A DNA stretch of 64,000 nucleotides, taken from assembly GCA_964637295.1 (NCBI GenBank), contig CAZWWE010000001.1, forward strand, positions 121,808-185,807. Direction: 5' to 3'. The notes below the pieces were generated by a model that was given only the letters and a program-made list of their open reading frames with translations, did not search any database and was not told the origin of the DNA. The stretch comes from an uncultured Pseudomonadales bacterium. GTDB taxonomy: Bacteria; Patescibacteriota; Microgenomatia; UBA1400; PJMF01. Shown one piece after another: positions 3,563 through 63,981 of this stretch. A program made the translations under genes and the position numbers. Every line of letters starts with the position of its first letter. Positions within the stretch are counted from its first letter, which is position 1.

Positions 3563-4810
3563 TTATTCGCGTTTTGCCTCTTCAGCTAAATATTCATCTA
3601 CTTTGACTAATAAGATTTTTTGATCAGCTTCACTCACTTCATTCATATTGACCCATTTATCTCTAAATCTAACCAAGTCAGCTAAAGTAGTTAATTTATG
3701 TTGAATCAAAACTTCTCTGGTGTCAGCTGACAGACCAAAAGTGTCAATCTCGTAATCTTCTTTACCAGTCACAGCTGATTGTACTTCGCCAGAAGCGGAT
3801 TTAATAGTAATTTGATAACCAGTTAACTTAGCGGCTAAACGCACATTTTGACCACCACGACCAATTACCAAAGATAGTTGATCATCTGGAGCAGTGACAA
3901 TCACCATTCGATTTTTATCATTAATTTCTAACTTCAAGCCTTCGGCCGGAGCTAGGGCAGCTTGTAGTAAAAGTCTAGCGTCAGCAGAGTAAGGAATAAT
4001 ATCAACTTTTTCATTATTTAATTCTTCGATCACTTTCTGCACACGTACACCACGTTGACCCACACAAGAACCAACTGGATCAACTCCTTCTTGAGTTGAT
4101 TTAACAGTTAATTTAGTGCGTACACCAGCTTCACGAGCAATGGCGACAATTTCCACTGCGCCAGAAGCTACTTCTGGCACTTCACGCTCAAAAAGTTTGC
4201 TGACTAATTCGGCACTAGCACGAGTGACAATAATTTGTTCACCACGTACAGTTTCGCTGATTTCTTTGATCAAGACAGCCAAGCGTTGATTGAGACGATA
4301 GAATTCGCCACGCATTTGCTCTTCTGGGGGCATAAATGCTTGACCACGACCAATATCTAAAATAACACTGCGGCCTTGCATGCGCAAAACTTGACCAGTC
4401 ACCACTTCACCAATACGATCACGATAAGCAGCGATAATAGTATCTTTTTCACTTCTTCTAATGCGTTGTAAGATTACTTGTTTAGCAGTTTGAGCAGCAA
4501 TACGACCAAAACCAGCTGGAGTCACATCTTCAGATTTTTTCTCATCCCATTCTAAGGGCTCGAGAGTTTCTTCATCCATTTTGGTGACTGGGGCTTTGAG
4601 AATACGAGCTGAGCCGTTATTTTTATCGAGATCAACGTAGTAATAGAAGCTTTCATCAAGATCACCAATTTGTTTACGATAGGCAGAAACCAAAGCTTGG
4701 CGAATGGCTTCATAAATATCTTCTGGATCAATTTTGCGCTCTGTAGCAATTTGCGTAATTGCAGCGGCAAATTCGGTTCTGACTAAGTTAGCATTTTGTA
4801 CTGTAGACAT
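3563..4810 (-). CDS. nusA: transcription termination/antitermination factor NusA
   Basis: 415-aa ORF with NusA N-terminal, S1 and KH regions (…GRGGQNVRLAAKLTGYQI…), upstream of infB. Confidence 0.9.
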   Translation of the reverse strand: MSTVQNANLVRTEFAAAITQIATERKIDPEDIYEAIRQALVSAYRKQIGDLDESFYYYVDLDKNNGSARILKAPVTKMDEETLEPLEWDEKKSEDVTPAGFGRIAAQTAKQVILQRIRRSEKDTIIAAYRDRIGEVVTGQVLRMQGRSVILDIGRGQAFMPPEEQMRGEFYRLNQRLAVLIKEISETVRGEQIIVTRASAELVSKLFEREVPEVASGAVEIVAIAREAGVRTKLTVKSTQEGVDPVGSCVGQRGVRVQKVIEELNNEKVDIIPYSADARLLLQAALAPAEGLKLEINDKNRMVIVTAPDDQLSLVIGRGGQNVRLAAKLTGYQITIKSASGEVQSAVTGKEDYEIDTFGLSADTREVLIQHKLTTLADLVRFRDKWVNMNEVSEADQKILLVKVDEYLAEEAKRE

Positions 4811-26592: not shown

Positions 26593-26608
26593 AAATACTT
26601 TAAAAATG

Positions 26609-26677
26609 TTGCGGAACTAGGAGTCGAACCTAGCCTGTGGGATTATGAGCCCCACGTGCACCGTACACTATCCCGCG
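26609..26677 (-). tRNA. initiator tRNA-fMet (anticodon CAT) with reduced D-arm
   Basis: Minus-strand read CGCGGGATAGTGTACGGTGCACGTGGGGCTCATAATCCCACAGGCTAGGTTCGACTCCTAGTTCCGCAA. It shows the C1·A72 mismatch, three G-C pairs at the base of the anticodon stem (GGG/CCC), a CAT anticodon in loop CTCATAA, and T-loop TTCGACT. Confidence 0.7.
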
Positions 26678-26792: not shown

Positions 26793-26866
26793 GGCGGGAT
26801 AGCTCAGTTGGTTAGAGCATCGGATTCATAAACCGAAGGTCCTGAGTTCGACTCTCAGTCCCGCTA
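26793..26866 (+). tRNA. tRNA with CAT anticodon (elongator tRNA-Met or tRNA-Ile2/lysidine)
   Basis: GGCGGGATAGCTCAGTTGGTTAGAGCATCGGATTCATAAACCGAAGGTCCTGAGTTCGACTCTCAGTCCCGCTA: canonical cloverleaf, D-arm identical to bacterial elongator Met type, anticodon loop TTCATAA. Confidence 0.75.
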
Positions 26867-26920
26867 CAAAACAGACACCGCTAAAAAAACATTATTACAA
26901 TATCGTTTAAAAAAGCTTAT

Positions 26921-31689: not shown

Positions 31690-32748
31690 ATGAAAATATT
31701 AAAGCTCAATTCTAATCGAGAGCAAATAATCACTGCCGCAGTCACTTGTCTAAAAAACGGTGGCTTAGTAATTTATCCGACAGAAACCGTTTATGGCATA
31801 GGGGCCATAGCCAACAATTCCATCGCGATTAGTAAGCTTTTGCAATATAAGGGTCGTCGTGAAGGCAAACCTCTGTCTATTGCTGTCACTGACCAAAAAA
31901 TGGCAGAAAAATATGTCGAGATCAATGAACAGGCTTTGAAATTTTATCAAAACTTTTTACCTGGTCCTTTTACTGTCATTTCAAAAAGTAAAAATCGAAC
32001 TGATCCTAGAGTTAACTCTGAATTTGGGACTTTGGGCATTCGTATTCCAGACTATCCACTCATTATTGAGATAATTAAAAATCTTGGCCAGGCCATCACT
32101 AGCACTTCCGCTAATGCTTCTGGTAAAAAACGACCCTACACCATTCAAGATATTTTTGCTGGCTTATCAGAAAAACAAAAATCTTTAATTGACTTAGTCA
32201 TTGATGCTGGCGAATTGCCCAAAAATGAGCCCTCGATCGTAGTCGATACTACACTCTCCACGCCAATTGCTTTGCGCGGATCATTGCAAGACGAAACAGG
32301 CGAAGTTCTATGGAGTGCTAGTGAGCAAGAAACCATTGAATTATCGGGCAGACTTTTACTCAATCACTTAAATGATTTGCAAAAAAACGGCCTAGTAATT
32401 GCGCTTAACGGACCGCTGGGAGTGGGCAAAACTATTTTTGCCAAAGGCGTGGCTAAATTCTTAGGGATCAAAGAAAACATTAATTCTCCCACCTATTCAT
32501 ATGTCAATGAATATTCATACAAACGTTTAAGCACAAAAGGCACTTTTTATCACATTGATGCCTGGAAAGTTGACGATCAAGCAGCAGTGAATTTTCTGGA
32601 AATTGAAAAAATGATTAAAAAAAATAACATTGTGCTCATCGAGTGGTTTCAGCAAATCAGTCAGTGGTTAAAATTAAATCAAAAAACTAAGTTACTAACT
32701 TTGAATTTTAGTGAAGAAAATCAGCAAAGAAAAATCATTATCAAATAA
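31690..32748 (+). CDS. fused TsaC(YrdC/Sua5)-TsaE(YjeE) t6A biosynthesis protein
   Basis: N-terminus: YrdC signature NGGLVIYPTETVYGIGAIA. C-terminus: TsaE P-loop NGPLGVGKTIFAKGVAKFLGI…SPTYSYVNEY…HIDAWK. A -10 TATAAT lies just upstream. Confidence 0.7.
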   Translation: MKILKLNSNREQIITAAVTCLKNGGLVIYPTETVYGIGAIANNSIAISKLLQYKGRREGKPLSIAVTDQKMAEKYVEINEQALKFYQNFLPGPFTVISKSKNRTDPRVNSEFGTLGIRIPDYPLIIEIIKNLGQAITSTSANASGKKRPYTIQDIFAGLSEKQKSLIDLVIDAGELPKNEPSIVVDTTLSTPIALRGSLQDETGEVLWSASEQETIELSGRLLLNHLNDLQKNGLVIALNGPLGVGKTIFAKGVAKFLGIKENINSPTYSYVNEYSYKRLSTKGTFYHIDAWKVDDQAAVNFLEIEKMIKKNNIVLIEWFQQISQWLKLNQKTKLLTLNFSEENQQRKIIIK

Positions 32749-45335: not shown

Positions 45336-47717
45336 ATGAATCCATTTTTATTGGCAGAAAGAAAAAAAGCCAAAAAACATCGTCGCCAAATCGCTGACAA
45401 AGGCTTTGCTGTCATTGAACAAATTAAAAATCATCGTTTGTATCAATTAATTCTATTGAGCATTGTTTTAATTTTTTTTGGTGTGCTAATTTATTTATAC
45501 AAACAACTACCTTCTCCCAACAATTTGACCGCTAATGAAAATTTTCCCGTCAGTACACAGATTTTTGATCGTCATGGCACCTTGCTTTATGAAATTTATG
45601 GCCAAGAAAATCGTATTCCCATCAAGATTGGCGATTTACCAGATCACGTTTTACAGGCTACAGTGGCCATTGAAGATAAAAAATTCTATTCACATCATGG
45701 CCTAGATTTAAGTGGTTTAATTCGTGCCAGTTTAAAAAATTTCCGCGGTGGTAATTTGCAAGGCGGCTCAACCATTACTCAACAATTGGTCAAAAATGCC
45801 TTATTAAGCAAAGAAAAAACTTTGCAGAGAAAAATCAAGGAAGCCGTGCTGGCCCTCATGACCGAAATTATTTACAGTAAGCAAGAAATTTTAGAAATGT
45901 ACTTAAATTATATTTCTTATGGCGGCACAGCCGTTGGCATTGAAGCTGCGGCTAATAAATATTTTAATAAATCTGCCAAAGATTTAAGTTTAGCTGAAGC
46001 CAGTCTTTTAGCGGGTTTACCTCAAGCTCCAACTATTTATTCACCTTTTGGTTCTAATCCCGAAAAAGGAAAAAATCGCCAAAAAGAAGTTTTGCGTCGC
46101 ATGGTTGAAGATGGTTACATTAGTCAAGCAGAAGCCGATCAAGCCAGTAACGAAATTCTAGCCCTGGCACTTTCTAAAACTGACATCAAGGCTCCACATT
46201 TCGTTTTTTACATCAAAGATTTGCTTTATGCTAAATATGGTGAAAAAACTGTTGAAACAGGAGGTTTGCGGGTCACCACTACGCTTGATTTAAGCTTGCA
46301 AGAAACCGCTCAAGCATCTTTATCAGGCGAGCTGAAAAAACTCAGTCATTTAAAAGTGGGTAACGGCGCAGCCTTAGTAAGCAAACCAAATACTGGCGAA
46401 ATTTTAGCGATGATTGGCTCTAAAGACTACTTTGATAATGAAGCCGACGGTCAAGTTAACGTCACTTTGTCTCTCAGACAACCGGGCTCTTCCATTAAAC
46501 CAATTATGTACGCCACTGCCTTTGCGAAAAAAACTCTCAATCCCGGCACGATGCTTTTAGATATCCCCACCTGTTTTCGCGTTGCTGGACAAAAAGATTA
46601 CTGTCCCAAAAATTACACTGGCGCATTCATGGGCCCAGTCACTATTCGTCAGGCTTTGGGCAACTCACTGAATATCCCTGCTGTCAAAGCTTTAGCCACG
46701 ATTGGCATTGAGACTTTCATTAAACAAGCTCAACTGATGGGCATCAATACTTGGACTGATCCGGCTAATTATGGCCTATCTTTAACTCTGGGAGGGGGCG
46801 AAGTTAAAATGATTGAGCTAGCAGAAGCTTTTGGTGTCTTAGCTAATCAGGGCGTACGTTTGCCTCTGACTGGAATTTTAGAAATCAGCAATTATAAGGG
46901 CGAAGTTTTGGAAAAATATGATCCTGAACAAGCTCGAGCTGACGTCGCCTTCTTAACTGAAAATGAGTTAGTGTTGGAACAAAATCAAGCCAAAAGAGTG
47001 ATGGAACGTGCACCAGCCTACTTGACCAATCATATTATGCAAGATAATAATGCTCGAGTTAACGCTTTTGGCTCAAATTCAAAGTTAGTCATCAAAAATA
47101 AAATTGTTTCTGCCAAAACTGGCACCACCAATGATCTCAAAGATAACTGGACAGTCGGCTACACTCCAGATTATCTGACTATTGTCTGGGTAGGTAATAA
47201 TAATAGTCAATCTATGAGTTATTTAGCTTCTGGTATTACTGGTGCGGCTCCAATTTGGCATGATATTATGACTTGGATTTTACAAGATCAAGAAGTGAGC
47301 TGGATAGAAAAACCAAACGATGTCAAAATTGCCAATCTTTGTTTAACGGGCATGCCAGCAAAAGCTGGTCTTGGAACTTTATTAATTAATGACCCCAATC
47401 ATCAAGATAAAAATTTAAGTCTAACTAATACTGATACTGATCCGATTGCCAGTTGTGAAAGCAAGGGCCAAGAATTATATTGGGAAAACTCCAAACCAAG
47501 CTATGCAGGGACTTTTCGCAAAGCATATTGGATTCGCAGTAGCACTGGCTTGCCGCCCAAAGAAGGTGAGGAAGCAACTGATTTGCAACTTGAAGAACAT
47601 AGCTTTTTTTATGATCCTTTAACCAAACTTTATTGTGCTGATTGTAACCGCCCCACTGACGAAACTGGCAAAATTATTTATGAAGCACAAATCGTTGATG
47701 TCAAAAATATTTTTTAG
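45336..47717 (+). CDS. class A penicillin-binding protein (second PBP1A-type paralogue)
   Basis: EDKKFYSHHG, GGSTITQQL, transpeptidase SxxK/SxN/KTG region. Confidence 0.85.
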   Translation: MNPFLLAERKKAKKHRRQIADKGFAVIEQIKNHRLYQLILLSIVLIFFGVLIYLYKQLPSPNNLTANENFPVSTQIFDRHGTLLYEIYGQENRIPIKIGDLPDHVLQATVAIEDKKFYSHHGLDLSGLIRASLKNFRGGNLQGGSTITQQLVKNALLSKEKTLQRKIKEAVLALMTEIIYSKQEILEMYLNYISYGGTAVGIEAAANKYFNKSAKDLSLAEASLLAGLPQAPTIYSPFGSNPEKGKNRQKEVLRRMVEDGYISQAEADQASNEILALALSKTDIKAPHFVFYIKDLLYAKYGEKTVETGGLRVTTTLDLSLQETAQASLSGELKKLSHLKVGNGAALVSKPNTGEILAMIGSKDYFDNEADGQVNVTLSLRQPGSSIKPIMYATAFAKKTLNPGTMLLDIPTCFRVAGQKDYCPKNYTGAFMGPVTIRQALGNSLNIPAVKALATIGIETFIKQAQLMGINTWTDPANYGLSLTLGGGEVKMIELAEAFGVLANQGVRLPLTGILEISNYKGEVLEKYDPEQARADVAFLTENELVLEQNQAKRVMERAPAYLTNHIMQDNNARVNAFGSNSKLVIKNKIVSAKTGTTNDLKDNWTVGYTPDYLTIVWVGNNNSQSMSYLASGITGAAPIWHDIMTWILQDQEVSWIEKPNDVKIANLCLTGMPAKAGLGTLLINDPNHQDKNLSLTNTDTDPIASCESKGQELYWENSKPSYAGTFRKAYWIRSSTGLPPKEGEEATDLQLEEHSFFYDPLTKLYCADCNRPTDETGKIIYEAQIVDVKNIF

Positions 47718-48921
47718 TCTTTTTTTATTTTTATTGCTAATTTTTATTATTTTATTTTCCATTAATATTTTTTACGAAATGCCTTTGTCCTCAGCGATTA
47801 ATAATGATAGCCGCTTGCGTTATCTTAAAGAATTAATTATTCCTAAAAAAGATAAAAAAGTAGTTTACGGTTTTTTACCCTATTGGAATCTTCGGGAAAC
47901 AAAGATCGAAAAAGAATTGACTCATCTAGCTTATTTCGGCTTAAATATTCAAGCCAATGGTGAAATTATGATTAAAAATGCCGATGGCAGTCTTGATCCT
48001 GGCTATCGAAACATGAATGAAGACATATTTTTAGAGTTAGCTACACAAATGCAAGCACAAAATGGCCAAGTGGAGCTGGTGCTCAAACAATTTGATGCTG
48101 ATGAAATCAGAGCTTTTTTAACTAATGAAAAAGCTCATCTTAAATTCTTGCAAAGCTTAGATTCCTTGCTCTTGGCTTATCCCATTGGCGGTATTAATAT
48201 TGACATCGAATATGCGGGCGAAAATAGTCAAGACTTACGCGAACATTTCCTCACCTTTTTACGCAAATTAGATTGGTATTTAGATAGTAAATATCCAAAC
48301 ATTTCACTCAGCATTGATGTTTATGCCAGTGCCGCGAGCAATCAGCAAAGCATTTGGGATCTGGAAAAACTTAGCCAATACCTTGATTACGTGATTGTCA
48401 TGGCTTACGATTTTCACCAAAGAAGCAGCGAACAGGCTGGGCCAGTCGCACCGTTGTTTAGTGAAAGCAACTCCTGGAACAAAGATATTAATCAACATCT
48501 AAAACAATTTTTTACTTTAATTCCGAGAGAAAAGATTTTATTGGGCATTCCTTTTTATGGTTATGGCTGGCGCACTGATTCTAATCAACCCAAAGCCAAT
48601 ACTTATCAAGATACAGGTTTTACTGTCAGTTATAAAAAAGCCAAAGAACTACTCAATTTAGCCGCTGGACAGCAACAAGAAGACAGCAGTTGGCCTGGAG
48701 CAAGTAAGATTCAATCAGGTTTTGATGAAAACGCCCTTTCTCCATATTTAAGTTACCAACAAGATGGAGAGCAATACCTAATTTATTACGAAGATCCGAT
48801 TTCAATCGCTTATAAGCTCGAATATGCTCGTCAACTAAATCTGGCGGGAATTGCCATTTGGGCACTGGGCTACGAAGATGCTGACGGCACCCTCTGGCAA
48901 GCGATCAAAAACGGCATCTAA
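47698..48921 (+). CDS. GH18 family glycoside hydrolase (chitinase-like), membrane-anchored
   Basis: YGFLPYWN, GINIDIEY catalytic D-x-E motif, LLGIPFYGYGW. Likely ATG MSKIFF overlaps the PBP stop. The track ORF begins earlier at 47635. Confidence 0.6.
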   Translation: MSKIFFSLFLFLLLIFIILFSINIFYEMPLSSAINNDSRLRYLKELIIPKKDKKVVYGFLPYWNLRETKIEKELTHLAYFGLNIQANGEIMIKNADGSLDPGYRNMNEDIFLELATQMQAQNGQVELVLKQFDADEIRAFLTNEKAHLKFLQSLDSLLLAYPIGGINIDIEYAGENSQDLREHFLTFLRKLDWYLDSKYPNISLSIDVYASAASNQQSIWDLEKLSQYLDYVIVMAYDFHQRSSEQAGPVAPLFSESNSWNKDINQHLKQFFTLIPREKILLGIPFYGYGWRTDSNQPKANTYQDTGFTVSYKKAKELLNLAAGQQQEDSSWPGASKIQSGFDENALSPYLSYQQDGEQYLIYYEDPISIAYKLEYARQLNLAGIAIWALGYEDADGTLWQAIKNGI

Positions 48922-48953
48922 GAAAAATAACAAGGCGGTTTTCTACCAAATTT

Positions 48954-49667
48954 CTACCAAATTTCGTAAGTCACAGAAACTACTTTGGCTACTTCAATTT
49001 TTTCTGGGGCAGTAGCGGCAAAATCAGCGGCTAAAACATCGCCATTCTGTTCTTGAGAAGAAAGAGTGCCGGCCACTTCGCTTAGATCATCGGTAATCGT
49101 CACAATTCTACCCAAACGTTTACCAGCAGCGCGAGCAATTTTTTTGGCTTGCTCACGGGCGTCCTTCATCGCTGCTTGACGCGCTTCCTGAGTAATCTCG
49201 GTCTGTTGATCGGGTAAAAAGCTAATGTTATTGATGGTGACGGCCCCATTAGTATAAAGAGCCTTGATCAGATCAGAGGTTTTAGCGGGCTCAAAGCTAG
49301 TTAGCTTAAACACATTGACCACTTGATAAAGCTTGTCGCCGCCAACAATGGTGGGTGTAATTTGATAAAAAGCTCTTTGAATTTCTGGGTTCGTCAACAT
49401 ACTTTTGCTCTGATCGATTAGAGTTTTGGTGCTGGTTTCACCTTGATTGACTGCTACCACCGGATCTACACTTGAGTCAACTCGGCTGACCGTCATTTCG
49501 ACTTTGGCTGGCGCAACCTGCAATTTGCCTGTGCCAACTACGGTGATGACTGCCGGTTTGAGGATCACACTGCGCAGCAAAATAAAAAAACCGATGCCCA
49601 ACAATAAAACCCATAAAAGTGATTTTTTATTTGATAAGGTGGGTGGAAAAGTGACAGGAATTTGCAT
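48954..49667 (-). CDS. SIMPL/DUF541-like periplasmic protein, putative
   Basis: 237 aa with N-terminal anchor; overall pattern reminiscent of SIMPL-domain proteins. Weak. Confidence 0.4.
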   Translation of the reverse strand: MQIPVTFPPTLSNKKSLLWVLLLGIGFFILLRSVILKPAVITVVGTGKLQVAPAKVEMTVSRVDSSVDPVVAVNQGETSTKTLIDQSKSMLTNPEIQRAFYQITPTIVGGDKLYQVVNVFKLTSFEPAKTSDLIKALYTNGAVTINNISFLPDQQTEITQEARQAAMKDAREQAKKIARAAGKRLGRIVTITDDLSEVAGTLSSQEQNGDVLAADFAATAPEKIEVAKVVSVTYEIW

Positions 49668-49732
49668 CTTAACTAAAAGTTTAGCATAAATCTTGGCCCA
49701 AAAATAGCAGAAAATTTGCTATACTAAAAATC

Positions 49733-50263
49733 ATGTGGAAAAAGAAAAGCTGGCCAAAATTTAATTTATTTCAAAAAATTTTTGCTAATCAAAAAATCGC
49801 CTTGTTGATCAGTTCTTTGGACAAATTCTTTATTAAATTACCTCACTTGCCTAAAAAACTCAGGCTACTGATCAGCCGTTTTGTGCCTTTCTTAGCCTTG
49901 ATTTTCGGTTTAATTGGCCTAGTAGCGAGCATATTGGCTGGTTCTTTTGTCGTTCTGGGCTTGCTCGCCGGCGAATGGGGCTTTTTAGCTGAAAATGCCT
50001 TCAACTTTGGGATAACTTTGCTAAGCGCCCTCCTGCTACTAAAATCTTTCAAACCGCTGCGGGCGGGCAACGCTGTGGGTTGGATTTATCTTTTTTGGTC
50101 AGAAATTTTGGAAGTCATCAACTTGATCGTGCGCACCATCAATCAAGAAAGTGGTTTGATTTGGAATTTAGTCATAATCATCTTGAGTTTTTACTGCTTA
50201 TTTGAAATTGGACAATTCTACGTGTATAAGAAAGAGAAGGAAAAAGGATTAAATACAATTTGA
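49733..50263 (+). CDS. hypothetical membrane protein (3-4 TM)
   Basis: 176-aa ORF convergent with and overlapping the 3' end of the giant gene. Confidence 0.35.
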   Translation: MWKKKSWPKFNLFQKIFANQKIALLISSLDKFFIKLPHLPKKLRLLISRFVPFLALIFGLIGLVASILAGSFVVLGLLAGEWGFLAENAFNFGITLLSALLLLKSFKPLRAGNAVGWIYLFWSEILEVINLIVRTINQESGLIWNLVIIILSFYCLFEIGQFYVYKKEKEKGLNTI

Positions 50264-53200
50264 TTCTTAAGTTTTTCATATAAAGAATTTAGAAGTATTT
50301 CTTCATCATTTAAGTTATCACTATTTGTTTCAAATGATTCTAGACCAAAAACATCTAGTCCAATACTTTCTAAAAAGCTCTTACCATCATAGATTGTTTT
50401 TTCTGTGCCGTTTATATAGTCACTTAGATGATCATTTCCTATTCTTAACAACATTCTGTTTATAGCAGCCATGTTTTTTACAAATAATCTCATATTCAAA
50501 GGAAATTCTAGCTTAAGTCTATCTGTTTCTTGCATCATGGCATTAAAAAATGAAATTTGTGAATTACTATCTGTATCGCGTTTGATTAGCTTTTCTTTAA
50601 GAGCAACTCTTAAATACGAAGCGTAGGCTTTCCAATAATTAAATAGTCCACTTTTTCTAACTTGATTACTGTTTAATAGATATCTTGTCAAATTAACAAA
50701 TTTATGAAAATCAGTTTCTTGATTAGACAAGAGAATTTTTATTAAATCAACTTCTTCTTGAGAAAGAACTAAATAATAACTTCTGTCGATAACTGAAACA
50801 TTGGATAAGGCTTCATCGGCCATAATATTTCCAATATGCAAATCAGAGTGCAAAATATAAGCTGTTTTACCATCTGCCAAGGTAACAGGGTAATTGAGAT
50901 GTTTGACATAATCGGTAACGATATCAGAAATCAATTCTTCAATACGCTTCGCTCTCTCATTATCCTGATTATTCACATGATGGTTTTCGCTAATTAATTC
51001 ATTTTCAAAATTTGCAATTAGATTTTTTAAAGTATCGCCCTCAACATAATCTTCAATTTTAATCCAACGGTTATAAATTTCGTGCTTGTTTGAAGTATTG
51101 AAAGTAAAACCAAACCTCGATTGATGTGGATATAATTGATTAAACAGGATGTCATTCGAGATAAAATTTTTATCTTGTATGTCTTCAGTATTCCATTGCT
51201 CTAGAGTATTAATTAATCTTTGAACAACTTCGTAATTTTTCTTATTACTTTTATCTAACTTCTGCAAATCATTGACAACTGACTCCACTAAAGTTCTCGT
51301 TTCTGCTACATCTATAATCACATTGGGATTACTGATTTTAAGAACTTTCATAGTTATCTCATCGTTCGTTGGATTGAGAATTTCCACTAGATAAGTTGTA
51401 TTAATTGATCCACCTCCAATTTTTTTAATGATTCTGATATTGGGTAATAATTCTTTGAGCTGCTTTGCTTGCGCCAAATTATAATCAATTTCTTCTTGAG
51501 AAGCTGCATTAGCTGGATTTTGTAAGGAATCAATGGCTGTTTCTGCACTTTGAAATAAATTCGCCATATATAAATTTGAGGCATTATCATAAACACTTAA
51601 AAATTCTTGCTGCAACTCTTTTGGTAAATCAAAATATTGACCAAATACTTGCAAAAACCGCACTCCCAAGCTGCCCAAGCTTTTAGCCAATTCAACAATG
51701 AATTGACCGGTCTGAATCTTACCGTTATTGCTTAAGTTTTGAATTGGCTCTCTTTTAATACCAAACTTTTTTAAACTTCTAAGAGCAATATTCTCAAATT
51801 GAGCGTTGAGATCAAAGACAAACTGATAATTACTGTTTTTGTTTATAACAATATTTTTATCTTGATTGAATAAATTTGTTAGCATTTTTCTAACTTTTTC
51901 TCGATAGTCCTCTGCAACGTCTGATGGCAAATTTTCACTGATTATTGTTTCAACTGCATAATTATTACTGACCGCTCTAGGATTTCCCTGCAAAAAACTA
52001 TCAGCTAGGGCTCTAGAAATACCCAATTCAATGCGCGTTGAACCTTCAACCTGGGATAAAGTTGAGCTAATAATATTTTTTAAAAGAGGTTTTAAATTTA
52101 ATTCTTCAGAATCTTCAAGCTGATCAGTTAAAAATGTAGCTATTTTGAGATGATTATCCTCATTCAATAGTAATTTTTCAGATAGCAATTTGGCAATAAA
52201 AGCTGTTTTTTCTAATTTTGATAAATTATAGAAACTCGCCACAAATTCCTCAAAAGTTGGAAAAGACGTTAATCCTGGACCAGACAAGTTGCCATTTTCA
52301 TCAACAAAAACGCTTGTTTTTTTGTGAATTAAGTAACTCGCTATTATAGAAAAAGCTTGCAAACTGCCGGAGTCTCTATCATAAGTTAATAGCGATGAAT
52401 AATATTTTGCTAAATAGTATTTAACTTTTTCGTGATCTCCTTTTATTGAGGCTTCAAAAAATCCGAGTAAATCTGTCTCATTCATATTAGTAATATAGTT
52501 TGAAACTAGAGTATCAACAGCAACTGTTCTGTCTAAACTCTTTTGCTCCGACCCCAAACTTTGATTTAAACTCTGATCTTCAGAAATAATTTTATATTCC
52601 TCAAAAGTTTTGACATGACTTTCTAAGAAAAAATGTATGTATTGATTATGTCCATTTTCTAAAGATTGTTTGAGAAAATCATACGCCTCATTAAAAGGTA
52701 ACTCTTGAAAGAGCTTAATCGCAATTTCTTCAAGAATTTGATTTTTAGTTTGCAATGAAGGGAAATTTTTTTCAAGAAAATTATACAAATCAACTCCTTG
52801 TAAATTTTTGGATTTTTCTTCAACAAACTTTAATTCATAGCTGATCAAGGGTTTTAATAAATTTGCTTCAACTTCATTGGTTCCAAAATAATATTCTTCA
52901 CCAGCTGTTCGATCTATGGCCGAAGCATAACGTCCGTTAGCTAATTCAAAAAACCATCTTAATTGAGTCGATACAGAAAAATTTATTGTTTCAGGAGCAA
53001 AATGAATACCTGGTCGAAAACCACTAATGTCTTGATTGATATCAGAAATATTTAAAGTGTTTAAATAGTTTTGCAATTCTTGGATGATCGTAAAATTACT
53101 AAACAAAGAAAAATTTTTATTAGACAATGGAGTATTTTTGCAAGCTTCTCTGATTTCATCAAAATATTCAGCTAAAATCTGCCATTCTTTGTCGTAAATT

Positions 53201-56200
53201 AGACTTTTTAGATAATCTAGGTACTGATCCTGAAGTTGCCTGTTTAGATCCAAAAAGGCTTGATCTATATTCGTTTGATCATCGAAATCCGACAACAAAA
53301 ACGAGTTCTTAAAAAAAGTAAGAATAAAATGTTGAGCCAAGATAAAACTATTGGATTCAATGTCTGCTTCACCTGAAAAAATTTGTTTAAAATTATTTTC
53401 ATTTAAAGCGAACTTAACTAATAAATTATTTAAAAAAACTCGATCTTCTAATTCTAGAAAGCTATGATTTAAGAAATCACTTAGTGTATCAACATCAAAT
53501 CTTGTGACTGGTTTATTTTTTGTAAAAATTGTTAATATTTTTTGATTAAATTCTTGAATTTTTATCTCTTGCTCTGGTTGATTAAGCTTAGAAACTCCTT
53601 TATAAGCAGAGAGGTCAATGTAGGTGTCAGTATCGTCATTTCTTTTTTCATTAAGATCGAGTTTCTTTTTAATATAATTAAAATATTCTTCTCTTTTTTT
53701 TAATTCACTATATTTAAAATTATTATTCGAATATTCTAAAATTTGATCTTTAGACCAATTTGGGTTTTGTAGCATTAAATTTATCAATCTGTCCAAATAT
53801 GGTTCTGGATCTAAATCATTTAATCGAATTTCGCTTATCAAGCGATCTTGAAGATCAAGAGATAATGAGTACAAGTGATAGCTTATTGAATGTGCATAAG
53901 CTTGCTTGCCCAGATTTAGACCGCCTGCGAACTGAATAATTAATGGAAATTCTTTTTCTACATCATCGAACAAATCGGATATAGTTTTCCTCAGATTTTT
54001 ATTTTTTAAAAACTCTCTGCGACTTGATAATTGAAAATCAAGAATTGATTGTGGCTTCAAGACTAAATCCGGCTTATTCTTTTCAAGAAGACTTGACCAA
54101 GGATCTTTATTTAACAGTTCCTCATAATATTGGCTATTTAAGTCGGCGTCACTTGGTTTTAGTTTGTTAACTAGATTTCTAGTTTTAAAAAATAATGGCG
54201 AGATAGAAAAATATAATTTGTCATAATCAAAGAGAAAATTAAAATGGAATGCTTCAAAAAAAAGATCTACATGATTATATAAATCGCCAAATCTATCTGT
54301 AGAACTATAGGAAGAAATCCAAAGCAATTTTATCCCTTTGAGTTGATCAGTGTTTACATGAAGATCTCTAAGTAAGTAATCGAATTTTTTGAACTCTTGA
54401 TCAATTATTTCAAGAGTTTGCTGAAATAGAATTGTATTGTAAAGCTTTTGCCAAAAACCAATACTCTTTTTCGATGAATTGTTTATATAATCTTTAGTAT
54501 TACTGACTCTTTTTCTAAAATCAGGAACAAAATTTTCGTAGTATTGTTTTTTAATGCTTGGATTGGCAGCAGAATACAGCCCTTCCCAAACTGCATTTTT
54601 TTTCGAATTGCTTAATTCATAGATAAAACCAAAATTAGTAGCTTTCTTCCACGAAAAAGGCATTGCGGTCGGTCTAATATTTTCTGCAATACCTAATTCT
54701 TGAAAATTAAAGGCTACTTCTAAATTTATGTTTCTATTAAATAAAGAGCCATGATCTAAATCAGAAATTATTTTGAATTTACTCATATTAAAGAGCTGAA
54801 CACCTCTATTACCCCAAAAAGATTTTTTGGCGGTTCTATTATCCGAATAACTACCAATAATTTCTGCGGCTCCCTGAAATGCTTTTGGTTGATACCCTAA
54901 TCTGCCCAACCTGAGCAAAGATGTTCTATCAGCTTTGTATTCTTGTGCTCTACCACTAGTTAATTCAGATAGCATGTCGTTCCAATTCAAAAAATTATCC
55001 TCAAAGTGAGAAAATTCATGAACTAAAATGGCAAACAATTGATCTTTAGTTTCTAATGCATTAATTAAGCCCTGATTAACAACTAAAGAACCATCAGGCA
55101 AAGCAAAAGCATTTAATCCTTGATTAAGAGATACATAAACCTTTGCCTTTGGCAAAGGTTCTTTACCAGCTTCTGCTCTTTCTTGATTAATTAAGTCTGC
55201 TAATTGGTCGACAAAGGTTTGGATATCTCTTACCATTTCATCATCTGTGCTTAAAAATCGAGTGTTGTAATGCTCAGCATTTAAAATATTCCTAATTTCC
55301 TCTAAAACTTCTTCTTTACTTCTCTGCCAATTTCCTTGTATGTGATCAGTGCTATTCAAAGCTATTTCTTGAGAAAGGGGAATTAAATTCATTTTTTTAT
55401 CTAAATCTAACACTGATGTAATGTATGAATTTAATTTTGAGTTTCTTTCTTCTTGATTAAAGTTTTGAGTAAAACCACGCTTTAGCAAAACACTAGCATC
55501 TGTTTTTAATATTCTAGCTTGATCAAAAAAAGTAAAAAATGAAAATCGTCTGCTAATTACATTCTTTATTCCCTGTAATACTCCGCCAATAAGTTTATTG
55601 CGGTTTAGTTTGCCAGCCTTTTCTTCAAATTCAGCCATTTGCTTGAGACCAACAATTGCTGCTGCTTGATTACCTTCTAGAAGATCATTAACATCAGAGA
55701 TTTCTTGCGGAGTCAAATTGAGAGTTTCTGTTTGACGACCAATGCTTAAAAAGCCGGGTTTAGTTACTATGGTCATTTGTTTACTTGCTAGAATTTGCTT
55801 CGCAATGAGAGTGGCTTGATAGACAGAAGTGATGGCACGAGTTGTATCTGCTTTAGTTTGTCTAATCTCTGCTTCTTTAGTATCGACCCAAGCATTGAGG
55901 TAAAGCTGAACACACTGGTTTTGCATACCGTGTGAATTGACCACTTGAAGCCTGGTATCACTGAGTTGTTTAAGGGCTGCTTGTTTCTTATCTGCTGCTT
56001 GCTGAGTAAGAGTTTGCGCTTGCTTCAGATCCCCAGCAGTTTCAGCCTCACCAACTTGCACAAGCAGAGCTTCTGCTTCTTGCATCAGGGCATTCGCCTT
56101 TTCTACTCCAGCTTGGGTATCTAAGCGCACTTGATTGCAATCGGAGCAGAGGGAGGAAAAATCGAGTAAATTTGATTCAGGGCTATCTGTTTGCAAAGAT

Positions 56201-59200
56201 TGATATTCAACATTGATGGAATTAAGGGCTGATCTAAATCTGTTCTCAGTTTCAGTAAAAGAAGGATTGTCAGTTAAATTTACTTCAATAAGGTGATTGA
56301 GCAAATAATCTTTATACCTAATTTCTAACAATATCTTTTTCTTTAATTCTTGAAATTTCAATAAATCAACAGTTTGGATTCCTGCTTCGTTTAAAATTAT
56401 TGGCAAAGATAAATCTTGTCCAGTGAAATAACTAAAATTACCCATTTCATTTTCAAATAATTGACTCAATAAATCGTTAAGCTCTTGTTGATATTCATTT
56501 ATTTCCTTATCAAAAGAAAATTTAGCGGCAGTCTTTTTAAAAGCAATAGAAAAAATTATTTTGCGTAAATCCTGCGAAGATGTAATTTCTGGAGGCAAAT
56601 CATTTTTATAAATTCTAAACAACATTTCTAATTCATGTTTCAAATTTTCAATATCTGAGTCTCTAATTTCAGAAACTGCTGAGTTTTTGACATAATCAAT
56701 AAAGATTTTATTTTGAGAAGACAGATGACTAATGATTTTCTTTAAAACTATTGCGACATCCTGCCATTTTTTTGGCTGACCAGGTATTGATTTTGCTACT
56801 TCTATATAAATACTTAATTCATCAATAGCACTGAACGCTTGTAGCAAATTAATGCTACTGGGTAAATCCTTTTCCATTTGTAATTGAGGAATTACTTTAT
56901 CAAAATCATTCAAATTGATAACTAATTTTTCATCTTTATCAACCTCTAATGCAAGTAGGGTGTTAAAAAAAGGAGCTCTCTGCTGCAATCTTCTTTGTAA
57001 TTCAGCGAATACATCTTTAAATAAAAGAGTGGCAAAATCTGATGGAGTATCGTGAATAATTCTTAGAAATTCAGTTGAACCATATTTTGCTTCAATTTTT
57101 TCTCCTAAAACCATGCCTAAGGCATAGGGTCTTAAATATGAGAGATTAATTGAGGCAGCTCTATTTACATAGTTACTAAAAATTGAAAAATCTATAGCAC
57201 CAATCAATTGATTGCTTTGGCCTTGTTTTTTCAGGCCGTTAGAAAATGTTTGGAGAAACCTCGCGCTTGCTCTTTCTCCTCCCATTTCTCCAATAAAAGT
57301 TGATAAATTTCTTTCTGTTTCGTAAGTAAAATGGTCATTTTCCTTCAATATTTGAGTTAAACTAGATATTGAATCAGAATCAAATCTGGAACTGTCAAAA
57401 ATATAATCCAAAACTTCATTAGTGTTTTGTTCTGTTCGTCTAGGCTTGGCAAGCCTATCAACTGCATGATCAACTTCATGAGTAATTGTCGTAATGCAAT
57501 CAAACAAAGACCTGCGATTTAGCTTGTTATTAATAAAAATGGGATGTAAGGTATCATTATCTTTTATTGGCTGAGCATATGCATTGGCAGACTCTTCAAA
57601 AACACTACTAATAATTGGAACGGTTACTTCTTTGCCATTTTTTTTGATTAAGATAGTCGCAATTGGCAAATCTCGACTTAAAGATAAAAATCTTGACAGC
57701 TGTTGTTCATCGGTTAAAATGGTGGCAATATCAGCTATTTGTTGATCACTTAGTCTTTCAACAGAAATTCTAATGATTTCTACCGATTCTTGATAAATTT
57801 CTTTAAAATATTCTTCTAAACTGGCAGCCGCTCCGGCTTGATTGAAAAAGATTTTTGCTTGCGGATCTAATAGTTTATTTATTAAAACCTGTTGCAATTC
57901 AATAGAAACATCCTGTTTTTTAATAGAATCCATTAAATTGGAAATTGCATATTGTATATCTGGATATAAAGATTTAGCACGAAAGATAAATTCTCGCTCG
58001 ATGAAATAAGGTAGGGAAGAAATTTTTTTCGCATTAATTTCATACGAACCATCTGTTAAAATCGTTGCTAAACCTGCTTTAACTAATGAATCAAGATAAT
58101 TTTTTGCAAAATCTAAATTAGAAGAAGTGTCATTAGTTATTAAATCTAAAAGTTGTTTCGGAGATCTGATTTTTTCCTCCGTCTGATCAAATAATTGATC
58201 CGCTTCTCCAACACCTAAATCAGAAACAAGTTGATCTTCTTGGCTTAATTCCTCAAAATTAAGCCAAATATTAATCATTGTTTCTTTTACACTACTAACG
58301 GTTGCTTGCCCCAATTTGATTCCAAATAAATTGCTTTTTAATTCTTTTTCTTCTGTAGAAAAATACATTTGAGCCAATTCTGAAGTACCAATAACTGGAT
58401 TTTTCCCATCTTCTCTGCTGGTGGCTGTTAACAACAGCAATAATCTAATTACTTCAGATTTATAATTAACTGTAATATGTTCACTTAAAAGTTCTTGAAG
58501 TAGCTCTTGTTCGCTCAATCCTTCGTGCTTAACAGTTAGTGCTAGTAATTGAGCAGTTCCTTCATTGAGATAATGATGAAAAACAACGCGATTCGTATTT
58601 TCATATTCGAATCCGCCAAGAGCTAGGGTTTTAATTAATTCTGATGTAACAATGAAATTAACATCTAATTGAGCTGCCTTTTTTTTGTTAATTAAAATTT
58701 CGGTATGTTCAAGAAAATCCAATCTGACATAGCCAAAACTATTAAATTGCTCATTAAGAGCACTGGAAAAAGATTCAATACTATTTTCGTCTTCGATACC
58801 TTTTTCTACTAACCAAGTTAATATTTTATGCGATAGTTGTTGTGAATTTGCCAAGACCGCCTTAGATTTACTTGCTCGCATAATTCCTTCATCTGAAGCA
58901 GAAAACTTATCAAGTAAAACAGATCTGATTTCATCAATCTCAATTATTTCTAGATTTTCGTCCTCATCGGAGTTAACATTCTGACTCAAATTTTCTTCAA
59001 GAATAGGATCAATTTTTTGAGCGTTGACACTTTGAGAGTTTTCAATATGCCTAGCAATTTGCTCTAATTCCTCTAGAGTTAAGGTTTCTAAAGGATCAGC
59101 AATTAACAAGGCTTGACCAGAATTTGTTTGCCATTCACCAATCACATTAATCAACTCAGTTTTGCGTTGTTTTTCAGCAACAAGTCTAGCCGATTCGTGC

Positions 59201-62200
59201 AAAATTTTTTGCAACTCAGCCAGCAAATTTTCCACTTGCTCCGCAGAATTAAGTAGCGAAGCTAAGGGTAAAGAAAGAGAGCTGGCCAAAGTTGCGCCAA
59301 GCCCTTCGATTTCAGTTTGATTAATGAATTGTTTAGTTTTAAAGACATTTATTACTAGTCTAATAAATTCTTGGCCAACATCTTTGCCCGAAGTTAACAA
59401 GTCAGATAAGTTCTGCAACGAGTCACTATCAAAACTAAAGCCAGCGGCTTGTAAAGATTTAATTAATTCCAACAAAGTTCTTCGCTTATTTAAGAGATCG
59501 TCAGTTTGAGCAAGTAGAGTGGTTTGATTTGTTAATGCTTGTTCTAAAATTGCCAGCTGAGCTTCTATGCGCTTTTGCTCCTGATCAGCGACCAATTGTT
59601 GAGCAATCCTTTTTTTAACACGATCGATAAAGGTTTCAGTTGTTTTTAAATTTAAATCCAAATCTTTCAATTGAAGAGTAGAATCAATTTGTTCTTGTTC
59701 CAATGTTTCACTTTGCTGCCTTAACCGGGTAAGTTTTTGAGCGGCTTCAGCCGAGAGTTGAGTTTTGCTCTCTTGGTTTGGAGACAAAGGCAAAATACTC
59801 AAGGCTGGGAGATCAGCTACTGGCTGATTTTCTTGCAGTTTTACTACTAATTGAGCAGCTGGAGTTTTGTGAGTAAAAAATCTTCCTCGATTTTGCCCAC
59901 TGTTTTTTACTTTTGCGTAAAATTCTGATAAACCGCCATCAATGTTACTTACTCTTGAATCTTTAGGCTGCTCATTTTCAGAATGACCATGGACAATCTG
60001 AGTAGCAGATAAAACCCTAAGCAGGTTATCCACGGTTGGCGTGTTCAGTCTTCCTCTATCGCTCAAATCCTCCATTAATCTTCTAAAATTACCAAAACCA
60101 TCTTTGCCACTTACAATTAGTTTAACCTTATCATTGATCGCGCTCACACTTTTTCCAAGTTTTAAGTATTTATCTGTATCACTGTGCATATAAAGCACTC
60201 CGTCAACAATTGTCACTACATCTAAGCTCATTAGCCATTCGGCAAGTTGGGGATAATTGAGTAAAAACAATAATTCATCATTGGTAATTCCAGGACTCAT
60301 GCCAGTAGAACTTGCCAGATCAACTAAATTAGCTAGACTTGCATTAGGTCTACTTTTTTGAAAATTAAAAAATCTATGATAGGCAAAAAGAGCATTAATG
60401 TCATGATTGCCCAGTAAAACTTTAATTCGAGGAGTTCCATCGGCAAAATTACCAGCTTCTCGAACTAAGTTCATAATTTTTAAGGCAGTTTCAACACTAT
60501 TTACACCTTTTGGACCACGACCTATCAGATCACCCGTTAAAATTAACTGATCATTCTCTCCACCAATCCACTTGCCTTTTTTGTCAAGTAAAGCCGTAGG
60601 CAGTTTGTGTCCGTTTTCATCTTTTGTTTGACCGCTAAGTAATCTTAGCAAGGCATTCCAATCACCATGAACATCACCAATTGCTGTCACGTTCCGTACT
60701 TGAGCTTCATTATTTTGAGTGGAGATTTGCAGCTGTGCAGCAGATAAATGTCGACCGGCAAACCACTGCCAATTGGTTAGAGATGAGAAAATTTGTTGAG
60801 TGTAAGCTTGGACATTTTGGGGATCATTGGAGAAAGCTGGGTCTCTTGCTAAAGCACTACTAACATTAGCAGGTTTTATAAGCTGATTAACAGCATATTT
60901 TATCCATTCAACCATTTCACTTCTAAGCTGAGCTTCATTCAAGTGATTTATTTGTTGTTCTTGAATAAGTCGTTTCAACCCTTTCTTTATTTGAAAGTCA
61001 ATTATGGCGACATTAGCTTCAAGTATTTTTTCTGCTACTTGAGCCTGCTTTTCTTGGGAACTTTGTAGCTGATTTTGCTCAATTAAGTTTTTTATTTGCT
61101 GATCGATTGAAGCTAATTCTGCTGCTATTCTTGACAGATCTGCTGACTTTTGAGCAATCCTCGTATCAAGTTGCTTTTTCCATTCTTCATTTCTTTCTAA
61201 AATTTCATTAAGAGTAGCGATTTCAACTTTTTGTTGTTTCAGGTTATCAAGCTCAATGGTTAAATCGCTGATGGCTGCCTTAATTGAACTAATTTGATCA
61301 GTGATTTGTCGACGACCAGTTAAGAGCGCCTCGAGTGAATAGGCTATTGGGTCTATTGTCAAATCTATTGAATCACTAGCCAGAATCTCTTCTATTGCTG
61401 GTTCAACTGCTGGTTGTTCTATTGCTGGCTCTATTGCTGGCTCTATTGCTGGCTCTATTGCTGGCTCTATTGCTGGCTCTACTGACTGCTCTACAATTGG
61501 CTCATTGATTACTTTTATTTCTTCAATGAATTCTTCTAAAGAATAAATTAGATTTACTGATCCATCAGCATCAGTTTTAGCCTGAGCAATCACTATCAAT
61601 TTAATCTGATTATTAGGATCACTTAAGGCAATTATGTCCCCTTCTCTAAGAGGATACTTTTGTTGAGAAGGAATTCTTTGGTCATTAACATAAGTCCCGT
61701 TAGTACTGCCCACATCTATAATAAATGGACGTCCATTTTCAATGATAAACTGAGCATGGTTTCTAGAAACTTGTGAATTATTAATAATAATGTCATTTAA
61801 ATCATTTCTACCCAAATTAATTATTACTTCTGAAACTGGCTCTGAAAATCCATATTGTTTAATCAACTCTACTTGACGTTTAAAAATTTGTTGACTTGTT
61901 TCAGATCCGAAAAATGAATTAAGTAAATATTCAATAGCCTTACGATTACTGATTGGTTCTCTAGATCCAACTTGAGCTAATTGTGAATGATAGAAATCAA
62001 CAACTTCATACAAGTTTGCGCTGAGCTGATAAATATCTTTAAATGTTGGTAAAAACTTATCGCCTGTAACATCAATCATGGCTTGCACCAATAATAAGCC
62101 AGAAAAATATGACCATTCATAAACACCCAGATTACTTTTGTTGGGTAAGATTGCATCTAAAAGAGTATCGGTCAACGGACTTTGAACTGATTTTGCACTT

Positions 62201-63981: not shown

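Follow-up and report, generated by a model that had tools for sequence, protein, structure and literature searches.

Can a single open reading frame (ORF) of at least 4,587 codons in an otherwise compact genome be a real gene, and what might a protein of this size do? The question is raised by a 64,000-nucleotide (nt) stretch of DNA, referred to here as the window, from an uncultured Pseudomonadales bacterium that GTDB places in the Patescibacteriota (Microgenomatia, UBA1400, PJMF01). The window covers positions 121,808 to 185,807 of contig CAZWWE010000001.1 in assembly GCA_964637295.1. An earlier note, made from the letters alone, had described the product of this frame as a giant signalling protein combining an FHA domain, a PPP-type phosphatase, zincin motifs and an ABC1/UbiB kinase. 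The frame proves to be a real gene under selection, and its product is a very large protein with several enzymes in it. With a probability of roughly 0.45, this product is a phospho-regulated protease/kinase scaffold built round a conserved M48–UbiB-like core, in which a single chain would write, read and erase phosphorylation marks and also supply the proteolytic output. The arrangement is new, while each kind of domain in it (FHA, PPP, M48 and UbiB-like) is known. The observation is confirmed and the earlier interpretation supported, with four corrections, which concern the sub-type of the kinase, the two HExxH motifs outside the M48 domain, the location of the protein, which stays unproven, and the core, which is a recurrent family and not unique.

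A genuine reading frame of at least 4,587 codons

The giant gene and the features that delimit it are the following, with positions counted from the first letter of the window.

50218..63981, minus strand: giant ORF, 4,587 amino acids counted from the first ATG; frame open to the window edge at 63999
50350..56607, minus strand: part conserved with the ortholog P0001 (residues 2459–4544; 44% identity over 2,149 alignment columns)
49733..50263, plus strand: convergent gene for a 176-residue protein with several transmembrane (TM) segments, overlapping the 3' end of the giant gene by 46 nt; no Pfam family
48954..49667, minus strand: SIMPL/DUF541 gene, a synteny anchor common to the P0001 locus

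A single ORF taking up about 21% of the window had been claimed, and it is indeed there, with a share of 21.5%. Upstream of the ATG at 63981, six further codons without a stop lead in the same frame to the window edge. As the frame stays open up to that edge, the length is correctly given as at least 4,587 residues, and the true start and N-terminus may lie outside the window. At the base composition of the gene, a stop is expected about once per 13 codons, so that a run of 4,587 open codons would arise by chance with a probability of about 1e-162; the remaining frames over the ORF are full of stops. When the gene is divided into quarters, the codon usage of each correlates with that of the other window genes at r 0.62–0.79, compared with 0.70–0.93 for other genes and 0.23 for an out-of-frame control. 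The GC content at third codon positions (GC3) is 0.23–0.26 against 0.31 in neighbouring genes, and GC along the gene declines from 0.39 at the 5' end to about 0.30 at the 3' end, mostly under the level elsewhere in the window. A foreign origin, weak expression or the amino-acid make-up of the protein could be responsible for these low values. Neither codon usage nor GC3 of the four quarters gives any sign of a mis-join inside the gene. Moreover, three Pfam domains lie in one frame over 7 kb of it.

Independent sequences support the gene as well. The gene of P0001 (locus L004), a protein of 6,575 residues, overlaps at its 3' end by 22 nt with a convergent gene, whose multi-TM product of about 170 residues is 46% identical to that of the window gene at 49733–50263. 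The gene order is the same in both loci (giant gene, convergent multi-TM gene, then SIMPL), and P0001 is therefore regarded as the positional ortholog. The first 4,476 residues of P0001 are unrelated to the first 2,458 of the giant protein. A TM segment stands at the N-terminus of this unrelated front, after which come a stretch rich in Cys and, near residue 917, another TM segment; by eye, the front also contains a Walker-A-like GGKT near residue 1960 and an HD-like HDIGKP near residue 4470. The short window-edge frame MERNKSNELFVEY* was considered as a possible tail of the SufD-like gene found ahead of the ortholog, and was rejected on account of mismatching C-termini.

Another contig of this species, 98% identical to window positions 48370–56001, comes from an anaerobic digester for solid waste (Joint Genome Institute, JGI, 3300045909, Ga0496406_013273; loci L008/L009). 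In it, 24 one-base insertions or deletions (indels) break the giant gene up into some ten short ORFs. The contig carries 33 such indels overall, the SIMPL gene is split too, and the flanking housekeeping genes are hit at 4.9 per kb versus 4.1 per kb in the giant gene. Since the flanking genes are equally affected and the assembly is a hybrid of Illumina and PacBio reads made with SPAdes (PMC10793357), the indels are most likely sequencing errors from uncorrected PacBio reads, and pseudogenisation of this copy was rejected on the same grounds. As a side effect, gene callers made about ten 'proteins' from the broken copy, which are now found in public protein collections. Substitutions between the strains comprise 52 synonymous and 43 non-synonymous changes, of which 56 out of all 95 fall on third positions, and the ratio of non-synonymous to synonymous polymorphism (pN/pS) is 0.20. 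The low ratio and the third-position bias indicate purifying selection on at least residues 2660–4587.

The M48–linker–UbiB-like module

The back half of the protein holds a module that recurs widely, and the features relevant to it are listed below together with the two further HExxH motifs.

50347..55389, minus strand: 'M48 – helical linker – UbiB-like' module, residues ~2865–4545, collinear with complete metagenome proteins of ~1,500 residues
54733..55182, minus strand: M48 zinc-peptidase catalytic region, residues 2934–3083
50407..51729, minus strand: UbiB/ABC1-like atypical kinase domain, residues ~4085–4525
62272..62361, minus strand: first HExxH motif, HEHTH at residue 541, with EGIAMY 18 residues on; a gluzincin-like pattern only
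57466..57480, minus strand: second HExxH motif, HEVDH at residue 2168, within a two-copy 12-nt tandem duplication (window 57457–57481)

A HMMER scan with residues 3388–4587 against 1.84 billion cluster representatives yielded 282 relatives at E<=1e-3, including 146 at E<=1e-10. Most of them are 1,400–1,700 residues long, and their last ~430 residues align to residues ~4085–4525 of the giant protein. When the whole protein was compared with the 150 best relatives by phmmer, residues ~2865–4545 were found to be collinear with entire proteins of ~1,500 residues, in the order of an M48 front, a poorly conserved linker of ~1,100 residues without a recognised domain, and a UbiB-like end. Both ends are matched by 77 of the 95 relatives of at least 1,350 residues, and an HExxH motif occurs within the first 400 residues of all 73 relatives of 1,350–1,800 residues. 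The M48 and UbiB-like domains form an evolutionarily stable pair. Neither the C-terminal 700 residues nor the kinase alignment nor the N-terminal 526 residues gave a match in a word-indexed protein search; this outcome carries no weight, since HMMER found 282 relatives, near-identical fragments among them, and such indexed searches are untrustworthy in the negative for queries rich in low-complexity sequence.

The family members differ in their additions and surroundings. Among the very long relatives, P0007 has a PDZ domain directly ahead of the kinase, and P0118 carries a superfamily 1 (SF1) helicase (AAA_11/AAA_12) along with a sub-threshold TPR match. Stand-alone members lie next to a gene for an 834-residue APH-domain protein, next to an extracytoplasmic function (ECF) sigma factor, or among housekeeping genes. 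Most members have hydrophilic N-termini without a signal peptide, and about a dozen have signal-peptide-like or lipobox-like ones. For example, the stand-alone M48–ABC1 protein P0035 (L006 6001–13454, GCA_964583365.1) begins with a lipoprotein-like N-terminus (…LPAGC…), and its gene is followed, with a 4-nt overlap, by that of the 834-residue APH (kinase-like) protein, a possible operon partner. No paper describing an M48–UbiB-like fusion was found in the literature. The domain combination had been called uncharacterised as a family; its core recurs as one, likewise uncharacterised.

All three HExxH motifs announced for the giant protein are present (residues 541, 2168 and 2988), compared with 0.07 expected by chance, and none of 5,000 shuffled sequences reached three. 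The one linked to EYKAD belongs to an M48 peptidase, whereas homology support is lacking for the other two. Peptidase_M48 (PF01435) matches residues 2934–2996 with an E-value of 2e-12 and 47.8 bits (cut-off 20.3; 51.3 bits in the segment scan), the alignment covering profile positions 13–79 of 186. The block reads NAFAxPxGxxxVxxGL...HExxH, with HEFSH followed downstream by EYKAD, which aligns with EQEAD of BepA. The 35 family sequences aligned all have H2988, E2989, H2992, E3014, D3018 and R3083, and 97% of them have H3077. The best solved relatives, PDB 3c37 and BepA, are soluble enzymes. The region of the first HExxH has no match in Pfam, nor in PDB by phmmer, and the second has no Pfam or PDB match either. 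The two copies of the duplication at the second motif, CATGAAGTTGAT and CATGCAGTTGAT, read HEVD and HAVD; because the motif lies within this duplication, it is doubtful as a zinc site. As zincin sites, both motifs remain unproven, being patterns in the sequence. The second one illustrates that a zincin-like motif can arise by itself from a short duplication.

The kinase assignment needed indirect evidence, as Pfam gives no ABC1, Pkinase or APH match on the giant protein, whole or in 600-residue segments, even at E<=5. The isolated domain likewise has no match to ABC1 (PF03109) at that level, and Pfam, NCBIfam and phmmer against PDB all find no kinase in the C-terminus. Several relatives do pass the Pfam ABC1 cut-off of 22.9 bits (P0044 with 41.8, P0054 with 38.6 and P0029 with 27.2). 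In alignment A1, ABC1 is matched by 12 of 23 homologous domains (best E 5.3e-21), the domain of the giant protein not being one of them. The A1 profile searched against PDB sequences placed the mycobacterial ABC1 protein 5yjz at the top (E 1.9e-4), followed by aminoglycoside phosphotransferases and protein kinases. AlphaFold2 modelling with A1 gave a predicted local distance difference test score (pLDDT) of 78 and a predicted template modelling score (pTM) of 0.77, compared with a pLDDT of 37 in a single-sequence run. Foldseek aligned this model in PDB to COQ8A/ADCK3 first (E 1.4e-8 to 7e-8) and then to MSMEG_1954 of M. smegmatis, with ordinary kinases appearing only from E 1e-4. Through the relatives' scores, the profile search and the model, the proposed ABC1/UbiB-type kinase is upheld, albeit as a distinct sub-type.

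ABC1 proteins are defined by a KxGQ domain and an Ala triad (PMC8956952). The giant protein shows the N-terminal 'KxGQ domain' extension, specific to UbiB, on a protein-kinase-like fold. At the KxGQ position there is an RFLQxxGQY block with an invariant Gln4111 and the GQ kept, without a conserved Lys, the equivalence of the two being one of pattern and model only. The motifs of the giant protein are RFLQVFGQ (Q4111, Q4115), GGGS (4189–4192), VLKISNPN (K4215), HSDLHIGN (D4380, N4385) and IDRS (D4399). Across the family, the blocks VLKxxNPN, HSDxHxGN and IDR are conserved; K4215 is kept in >=90%, and D4380, G4384, N4385, D4399 and R4400 are invariant. The nucleotide loop reads GGGS in 113 members, GAGS in 9, AGGS in 6 and AAAS in none, with an invariant Ser following. 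Judged by these signatures (GGGS for AAAS, QxxGQ for KxGQ), the domain is classed as a distinct UbiB/ABC1 sub-type. The catalytic residues of both enzymes of the module are intact, being conserved family-wide, and the motifs of the phosphatase described below are present in the giant sequence.

The front half and the proposed working of the whole protein

The front half contributes two further domains and two repeats.

61624..61818, minus strand: FHA domain, residues 722–786
59983..60690, minus strand: PPP-type metallophosphatase, residues 1098–1333
61390..61507, minus strand: (EPAI)n tandem repeat with a 12-nt period and ~7 copies, forming a linker after the FHA domain
63553..63612, minus strand: 18-nt tandem repeat of 3.3 copies, coding for a Q/E/N-rich low-complexity stretch (ENQAQQ-type)

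The FHA domain had been correctly recognised, as PF00498 matches with an E-value of 2.9e-20 and 72.9 bits (cut-off 20.7). Its phosphothreonine-contacting residues are canonical, namely GR (LGR), SxxH (SRNHA) and NG (STNGT), and its best model matches are actinobacterial FhaB/FipA and OdhI, in part of their length. The calcineurin-like PPP phosphatase also passes its Pfam threshold (Metallophos PF00149, E 2.6e-9, 38.2 bits, cut-off 21.5) and bears the motifs listed for it, read as GDVHG, GDLIGRG, GNHD and VHGH; in GDLIGRG, the Asp of the canonical GDxxDRG is replaced by Gly. The closest solved relatives are the Shewanella cold-active Shelph-type PPP enzymes 2z72/1v73 (E 1.5e-5), and an ApaH-like model matches the region in part. 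The FHA, Metallophos and M48 matches all recur in Pfam scans of segments.

The (EPAI)n and Q/E/N-rich segments are real tandem repeats, as had been described. Self-comparison reveals no internal duplications, so the giant protein is not a repeat protein, and coiled-coil families are found only as sub-threshold Pfam matches. No TM helix or signal peptide is present in the visible 4,587 residues (19-residue Kyte-Doolittle maximum 1.35, threshold 1.6), in agreement with the earlier note. Its further step to a cytoplasmic protein stays unproven, because TM segments occur in the ortholog and the N-terminus of the giant protein may lie beyond the window. Additionally, Pfam scans of the same residues, whole and in segments, detect no known secretion or trafficking domain; LXG matches in the segments are sub-threshold (E 0.04–0.6), and the PADLOC defence models return 0 families at E<=0.01.

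Residues 1–2550 are matched by none of the 150 best relatives, and a metagenome contig scan with the N-terminal 706 residues gave no match. A contig scan of GTDB representative genomes with the whole protein returned only a low-complexity ENEAQQEN match (Anaerovoracaceae) to the Q/E/N-rich repeat, which was rejected as irrelevant; the source species thus appears to be missing from the representatives scanned. Since the front of the ortholog is unrelated and no relative matches residues 1–2550, the FHA/phosphatase half appears lineage-specific as far as the data reach, and the front halves of these giant genes seem to turn over quickly.

How could such a protein work? The core would consist of the M48 protease, the linker and a divergent UbiB/ABC1-fold kinase or ATPase; many uncultured bacteria have this core as a protein of its own, of ~1,500 residues. 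To this core, the present lineage would have added an N-terminal half of at least 2,450 residues with the FHA reader and the PPP (Shelph-like) phosphatase. The UbiB-like domain, with its GGGS loop and its catalytic Lys, Asp, Asn and Asp kept, may phosphorylate Ser/Thr residues of itself or of partners with ATP. The FHA domain would dock on the resulting phosphothreonines, the PPP phosphatase would erase them, and this phospho-cycle would gate or target the M48 protease. Protein-kinase activity beyond a mere ATPase, coupling between the domains and the location are what we infer here; the location would be cytoplasmic, possibly with membrane anchoring via the missing N-terminus.

Several points weigh against this scaffold reading. 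None of the searches made found relatives of the FHA/PPP half, whose contiguity with the module rests on this one assembly, the open frame and the in-frame domains; independent sequences start only at residue ~2459 (ortholog) or ~2660 (strain contig). Pfam detects neither FHA nor Metallophos in six relatives scanned in full, and nothing at all in residues 1–4600 of P0001 (L004 10001–23800), so the core module needs no reader or eraser in cis. The signal-peptide-like or lipoprotein-like N-termini of some members ill fit an ATP-dependent cytoplasmic role across the family. Furthermore, UbiB-family proteins are often ATPases or lipid handlers and not protein kinases. An Ala-to-Gly change in the Ala triad is reported to have given human ADCK3 a clear protein-kinase (auto)phosphorylation activity, but AtABC1K6 became less active after comparable changes (PMC8956952), and for this reason the GGGS loop is no proof of protein-kinase activity.

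Could the protein instead be exported or delivered to a host, acting at the cell surface or after transfer to rewire host Ser/Thr phospho-signalling? The reduced genome context (short initiation factor IF-2, TsaC–TsaE fusion, ORFs without a family; the longest contig in the genome that carries P0001 is 898 kb) favours such an effector, as do the unrelated N-terminal halves of the positional orthologs, which point to a fast turnover frequent in host-interaction proteins, an argument also made in PMC11809585. The TM/signal segment and Cys-rich stretch that open P0001, and the signal-peptide-like or lipobox-like N-termini of about a dozen relatives, agree with export, the N-terminus of the giant protein itself lying out of view. 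We nevertheless consider this explanation unlikely. The visible 4,587 residues hold neither a signal peptide nor a TM segment nor a known secretion/trafficking domain, and LXG stays below threshold. In the giant protein the C-terminal part is the conserved one and the N-terminal part varies, the other way round than in polymorphic toxins, and an immunity-like gene is not seen downstream. Most members of ~1,500 residues are without a signal peptide, and stand-alone ones lie among housekeeping genes. The second TM segment of P0001 would return the 5,600-residue remainder, including the module, to the cytoplasm. A host-dependent organism of anaerobic digesters, Patescibacteria/CPR-like by its gene content and by the 898-kb contig of the relative, is a reasonable inference, yet only that. 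An explanation by lipid or membrane homeostasis, in which the UbiB-like domain would be an isoprenoid- or lipid-handling ATPase, the M48 domain would serve membrane-protein quality control and FHA/PPP would take input from other kinases, is about as improbable as the effector. Throughout the family, both UbiB signature motifs deviate (GGGS stands in for AAAS, and QxxGQ has no Lys), the module has no TM or strongly hydrophobic segment, and its M48 domain resembles the soluble BepA type and not HtpX or Ste24. No lipid-metabolism genes are adjacent in the neighbourhoods viewed, and no quinone genes were seen in those of the module (the window, the ortholog's locus and the relatives' loci).

By far the least probable alternative is an artefact, either a chimeric assembly or a pseudogene in decay whose frame is still open by chance. 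It could appeal to the broken copy on Ga0496406_013273, the sole other contig of this species, to the GC3 below that of the neighbours, to a codon-usage correlation at the low end, and to an N-terminal half without independent confirmation. Against it stand the equal indel rate in the flanking genes of a hybrid PacBio assembly, the pN/pS ratio, the improbability of a stop-free frame by chance, the three in-frame Pfam domains, the syntenic ortholog and the similar codon usage of all four quarters. A chimera or frameshifts, named at the outset as what would overturn the ORF, are therefore strongly disfavoured. The scaffold reading can also be carried further, although we hold this extension to be doubtful: M48–linker–UbiB-like proteins may form a widespread but unrecognised class of proteases under the control of phosphorylation or ATP. 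Their UbiB fold would have regained a Gly-rich loop and work as a true protein Ser/Thr kinase, and the giant protein would be an all-in-one machine that possibly is delivered to a host cell or acts on one. If true, this would reveal natural protein-kinase chemistry in the UbiB superfamily and offer a tractable system for what UbiB proteins do.

In the remainder of the window, the genome is compact and its genes are of a housekeeping kind. The neighbours of the giant gene include GroEL, DnaK, FtsH, AtpA, TsaD and a B12-dependent ribonucleotide reductase, and many ORFs have no family. NrdR was seen in the matching locus L002, and a reductase protein identical to that of the window occurs in two further metagenomes. 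The remaining features are given here.

31690–32748, plus strand: TsaC–TsaE fusion
2057–3562, minus strand: IF-2 of 501 residues
37462–39888, minus strand, and 45336–47717, plus strand: two full-length class-A penicillin-binding protein (PBP1A) paralogs
47635–48921, plus strand: GH18 chitinase-like gene (E 1.5e-42), adjoining SIMPL and also present on the JGI strain contig
26608–26677, minus strand, and 26793–26867, plus strand: two tRNA-Met (CAT), back to back and 115 nt apart

The reduced-genome features (TsaC–TsaE fusion, short IF-2) are accompanied, all the same, by two class-A PBP paralogs less than 10 kb apart. The two tRNA-Met genes score 43 versus 69 bits with the Rfam tRNA model and are the sole Rfam matches in the window.

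Comparison with known systems

The biochemical activity of UbiB/ABC1/COQ8 proteins (PF03109) has long been open, with protein kinase, ATPase and lipid handler as the options (PMC8956952). A large uncharacterised sister group bears on this question by virtue of its natural Gly-rich loop and its constant M48 fusion. The giant protein alone additionally fuses the UbiB-like domain to a phosphothreonine reader and a Ser/Thr-type phosphatase, and such domain fusions are classical evidence of functional coupling. Where UbiB/ABC1/COQ8 proteins have AAAS, the giant protein has GGGS, and every family member examined shares this Gly-rich replacement (GGGS or its GAGS and AGGS variants). KxGQ is further changed to QxxGQ and DFG to IDR, and the domain of the giant protein falls under the Pfam threshold. 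In its family, M48 and the ~1,100-residue linker always precede the UbiB-like domain in the same chain, and genes of quinone biosynthesis are absent from the neighbourhoods viewed.

With the M48 peptidases (BepA/YfgC, HtpX, Ste24, Oma1 and PGM48), the giant protein shares the NAFAxPxGxxxVxxGL...HExxH block and the Glu of ExxAD. It differs from them in a short spacer of 22 residues between HExxH and this Glu, in having no TM segment, and in being embedded in a protein of several thousand residues. ABC1 kinases and an M48 protease (PGM48, sll1280) are also found together on the plastoglobules of plants and the lipid droplets of cyanobacteria (PMC8956952, PMC12223511); the association is by co-localisation there and by fusion in the giant protein. 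The Shelph enzymes (1v73, 2z72) are the nearest solved relatives of residues ~1090–1220 and share GDxHG, GDxxxRG and GNH[ED], but the sequence alignment covers no more than the N-terminal half of the phosphatase fold, and an enzyme of ~340 residues is compared here with a domain of a giant protein.

Proteins of more than 4,000 residues number 149 among 2.1 million NCBI Patescibacteria proteins and are mostly FhaB/DUF2341 adhesin-like (PMC11809585). The present one is thus unusual for a genome of the ~1-Mb class, in which such proteins are very rare and the described ones are adhesin-like rather than enzyme-rich. The giants of Patescibacteria and Omnitrophota (PMC11809585; bioRxiv 10.1101/2023.11.21.568195) likewise lack full-length homologs and show reshuffling of domains between relatives. 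They are described as proteins of the surface or for adhesion, rich in repeats and equipped with export signals, whereas the protein described here has signalling enzymes of an intracellular type, with no FhaB/adhesin repeats and no internal duplication. Polymorphic toxins offer another contrast, since their C-terminus is variable. The giant protein is conserved C-terminally, its downstream gene encodes a conserved convergent membrane protein and nothing immunity-like, and the visible 4,587 residues hold no export or trafficking domain, although the N-terminus may be missing.

Further close parallels are sets for bacterial Ser/Thr phospho-signalling such as PpkA/PppA/Fha1 of the threonine-phosphorylation pathway in the type VI secretion system (T6SS) and the mycobacterial PknB/PstP/FhaA–FhaB set, which consist of separate proteins with a Hanks-type kinase and a PP2C-type phosphatase. 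Both sets comprise the same functions of writer, eraser and phosphothreonine reader as are proposed for the giant protein. What sets the latter apart is that all of these lie on one chain, with a UbiB-fold kinase, a PPP/Shelph phosphatase and an attached protease.

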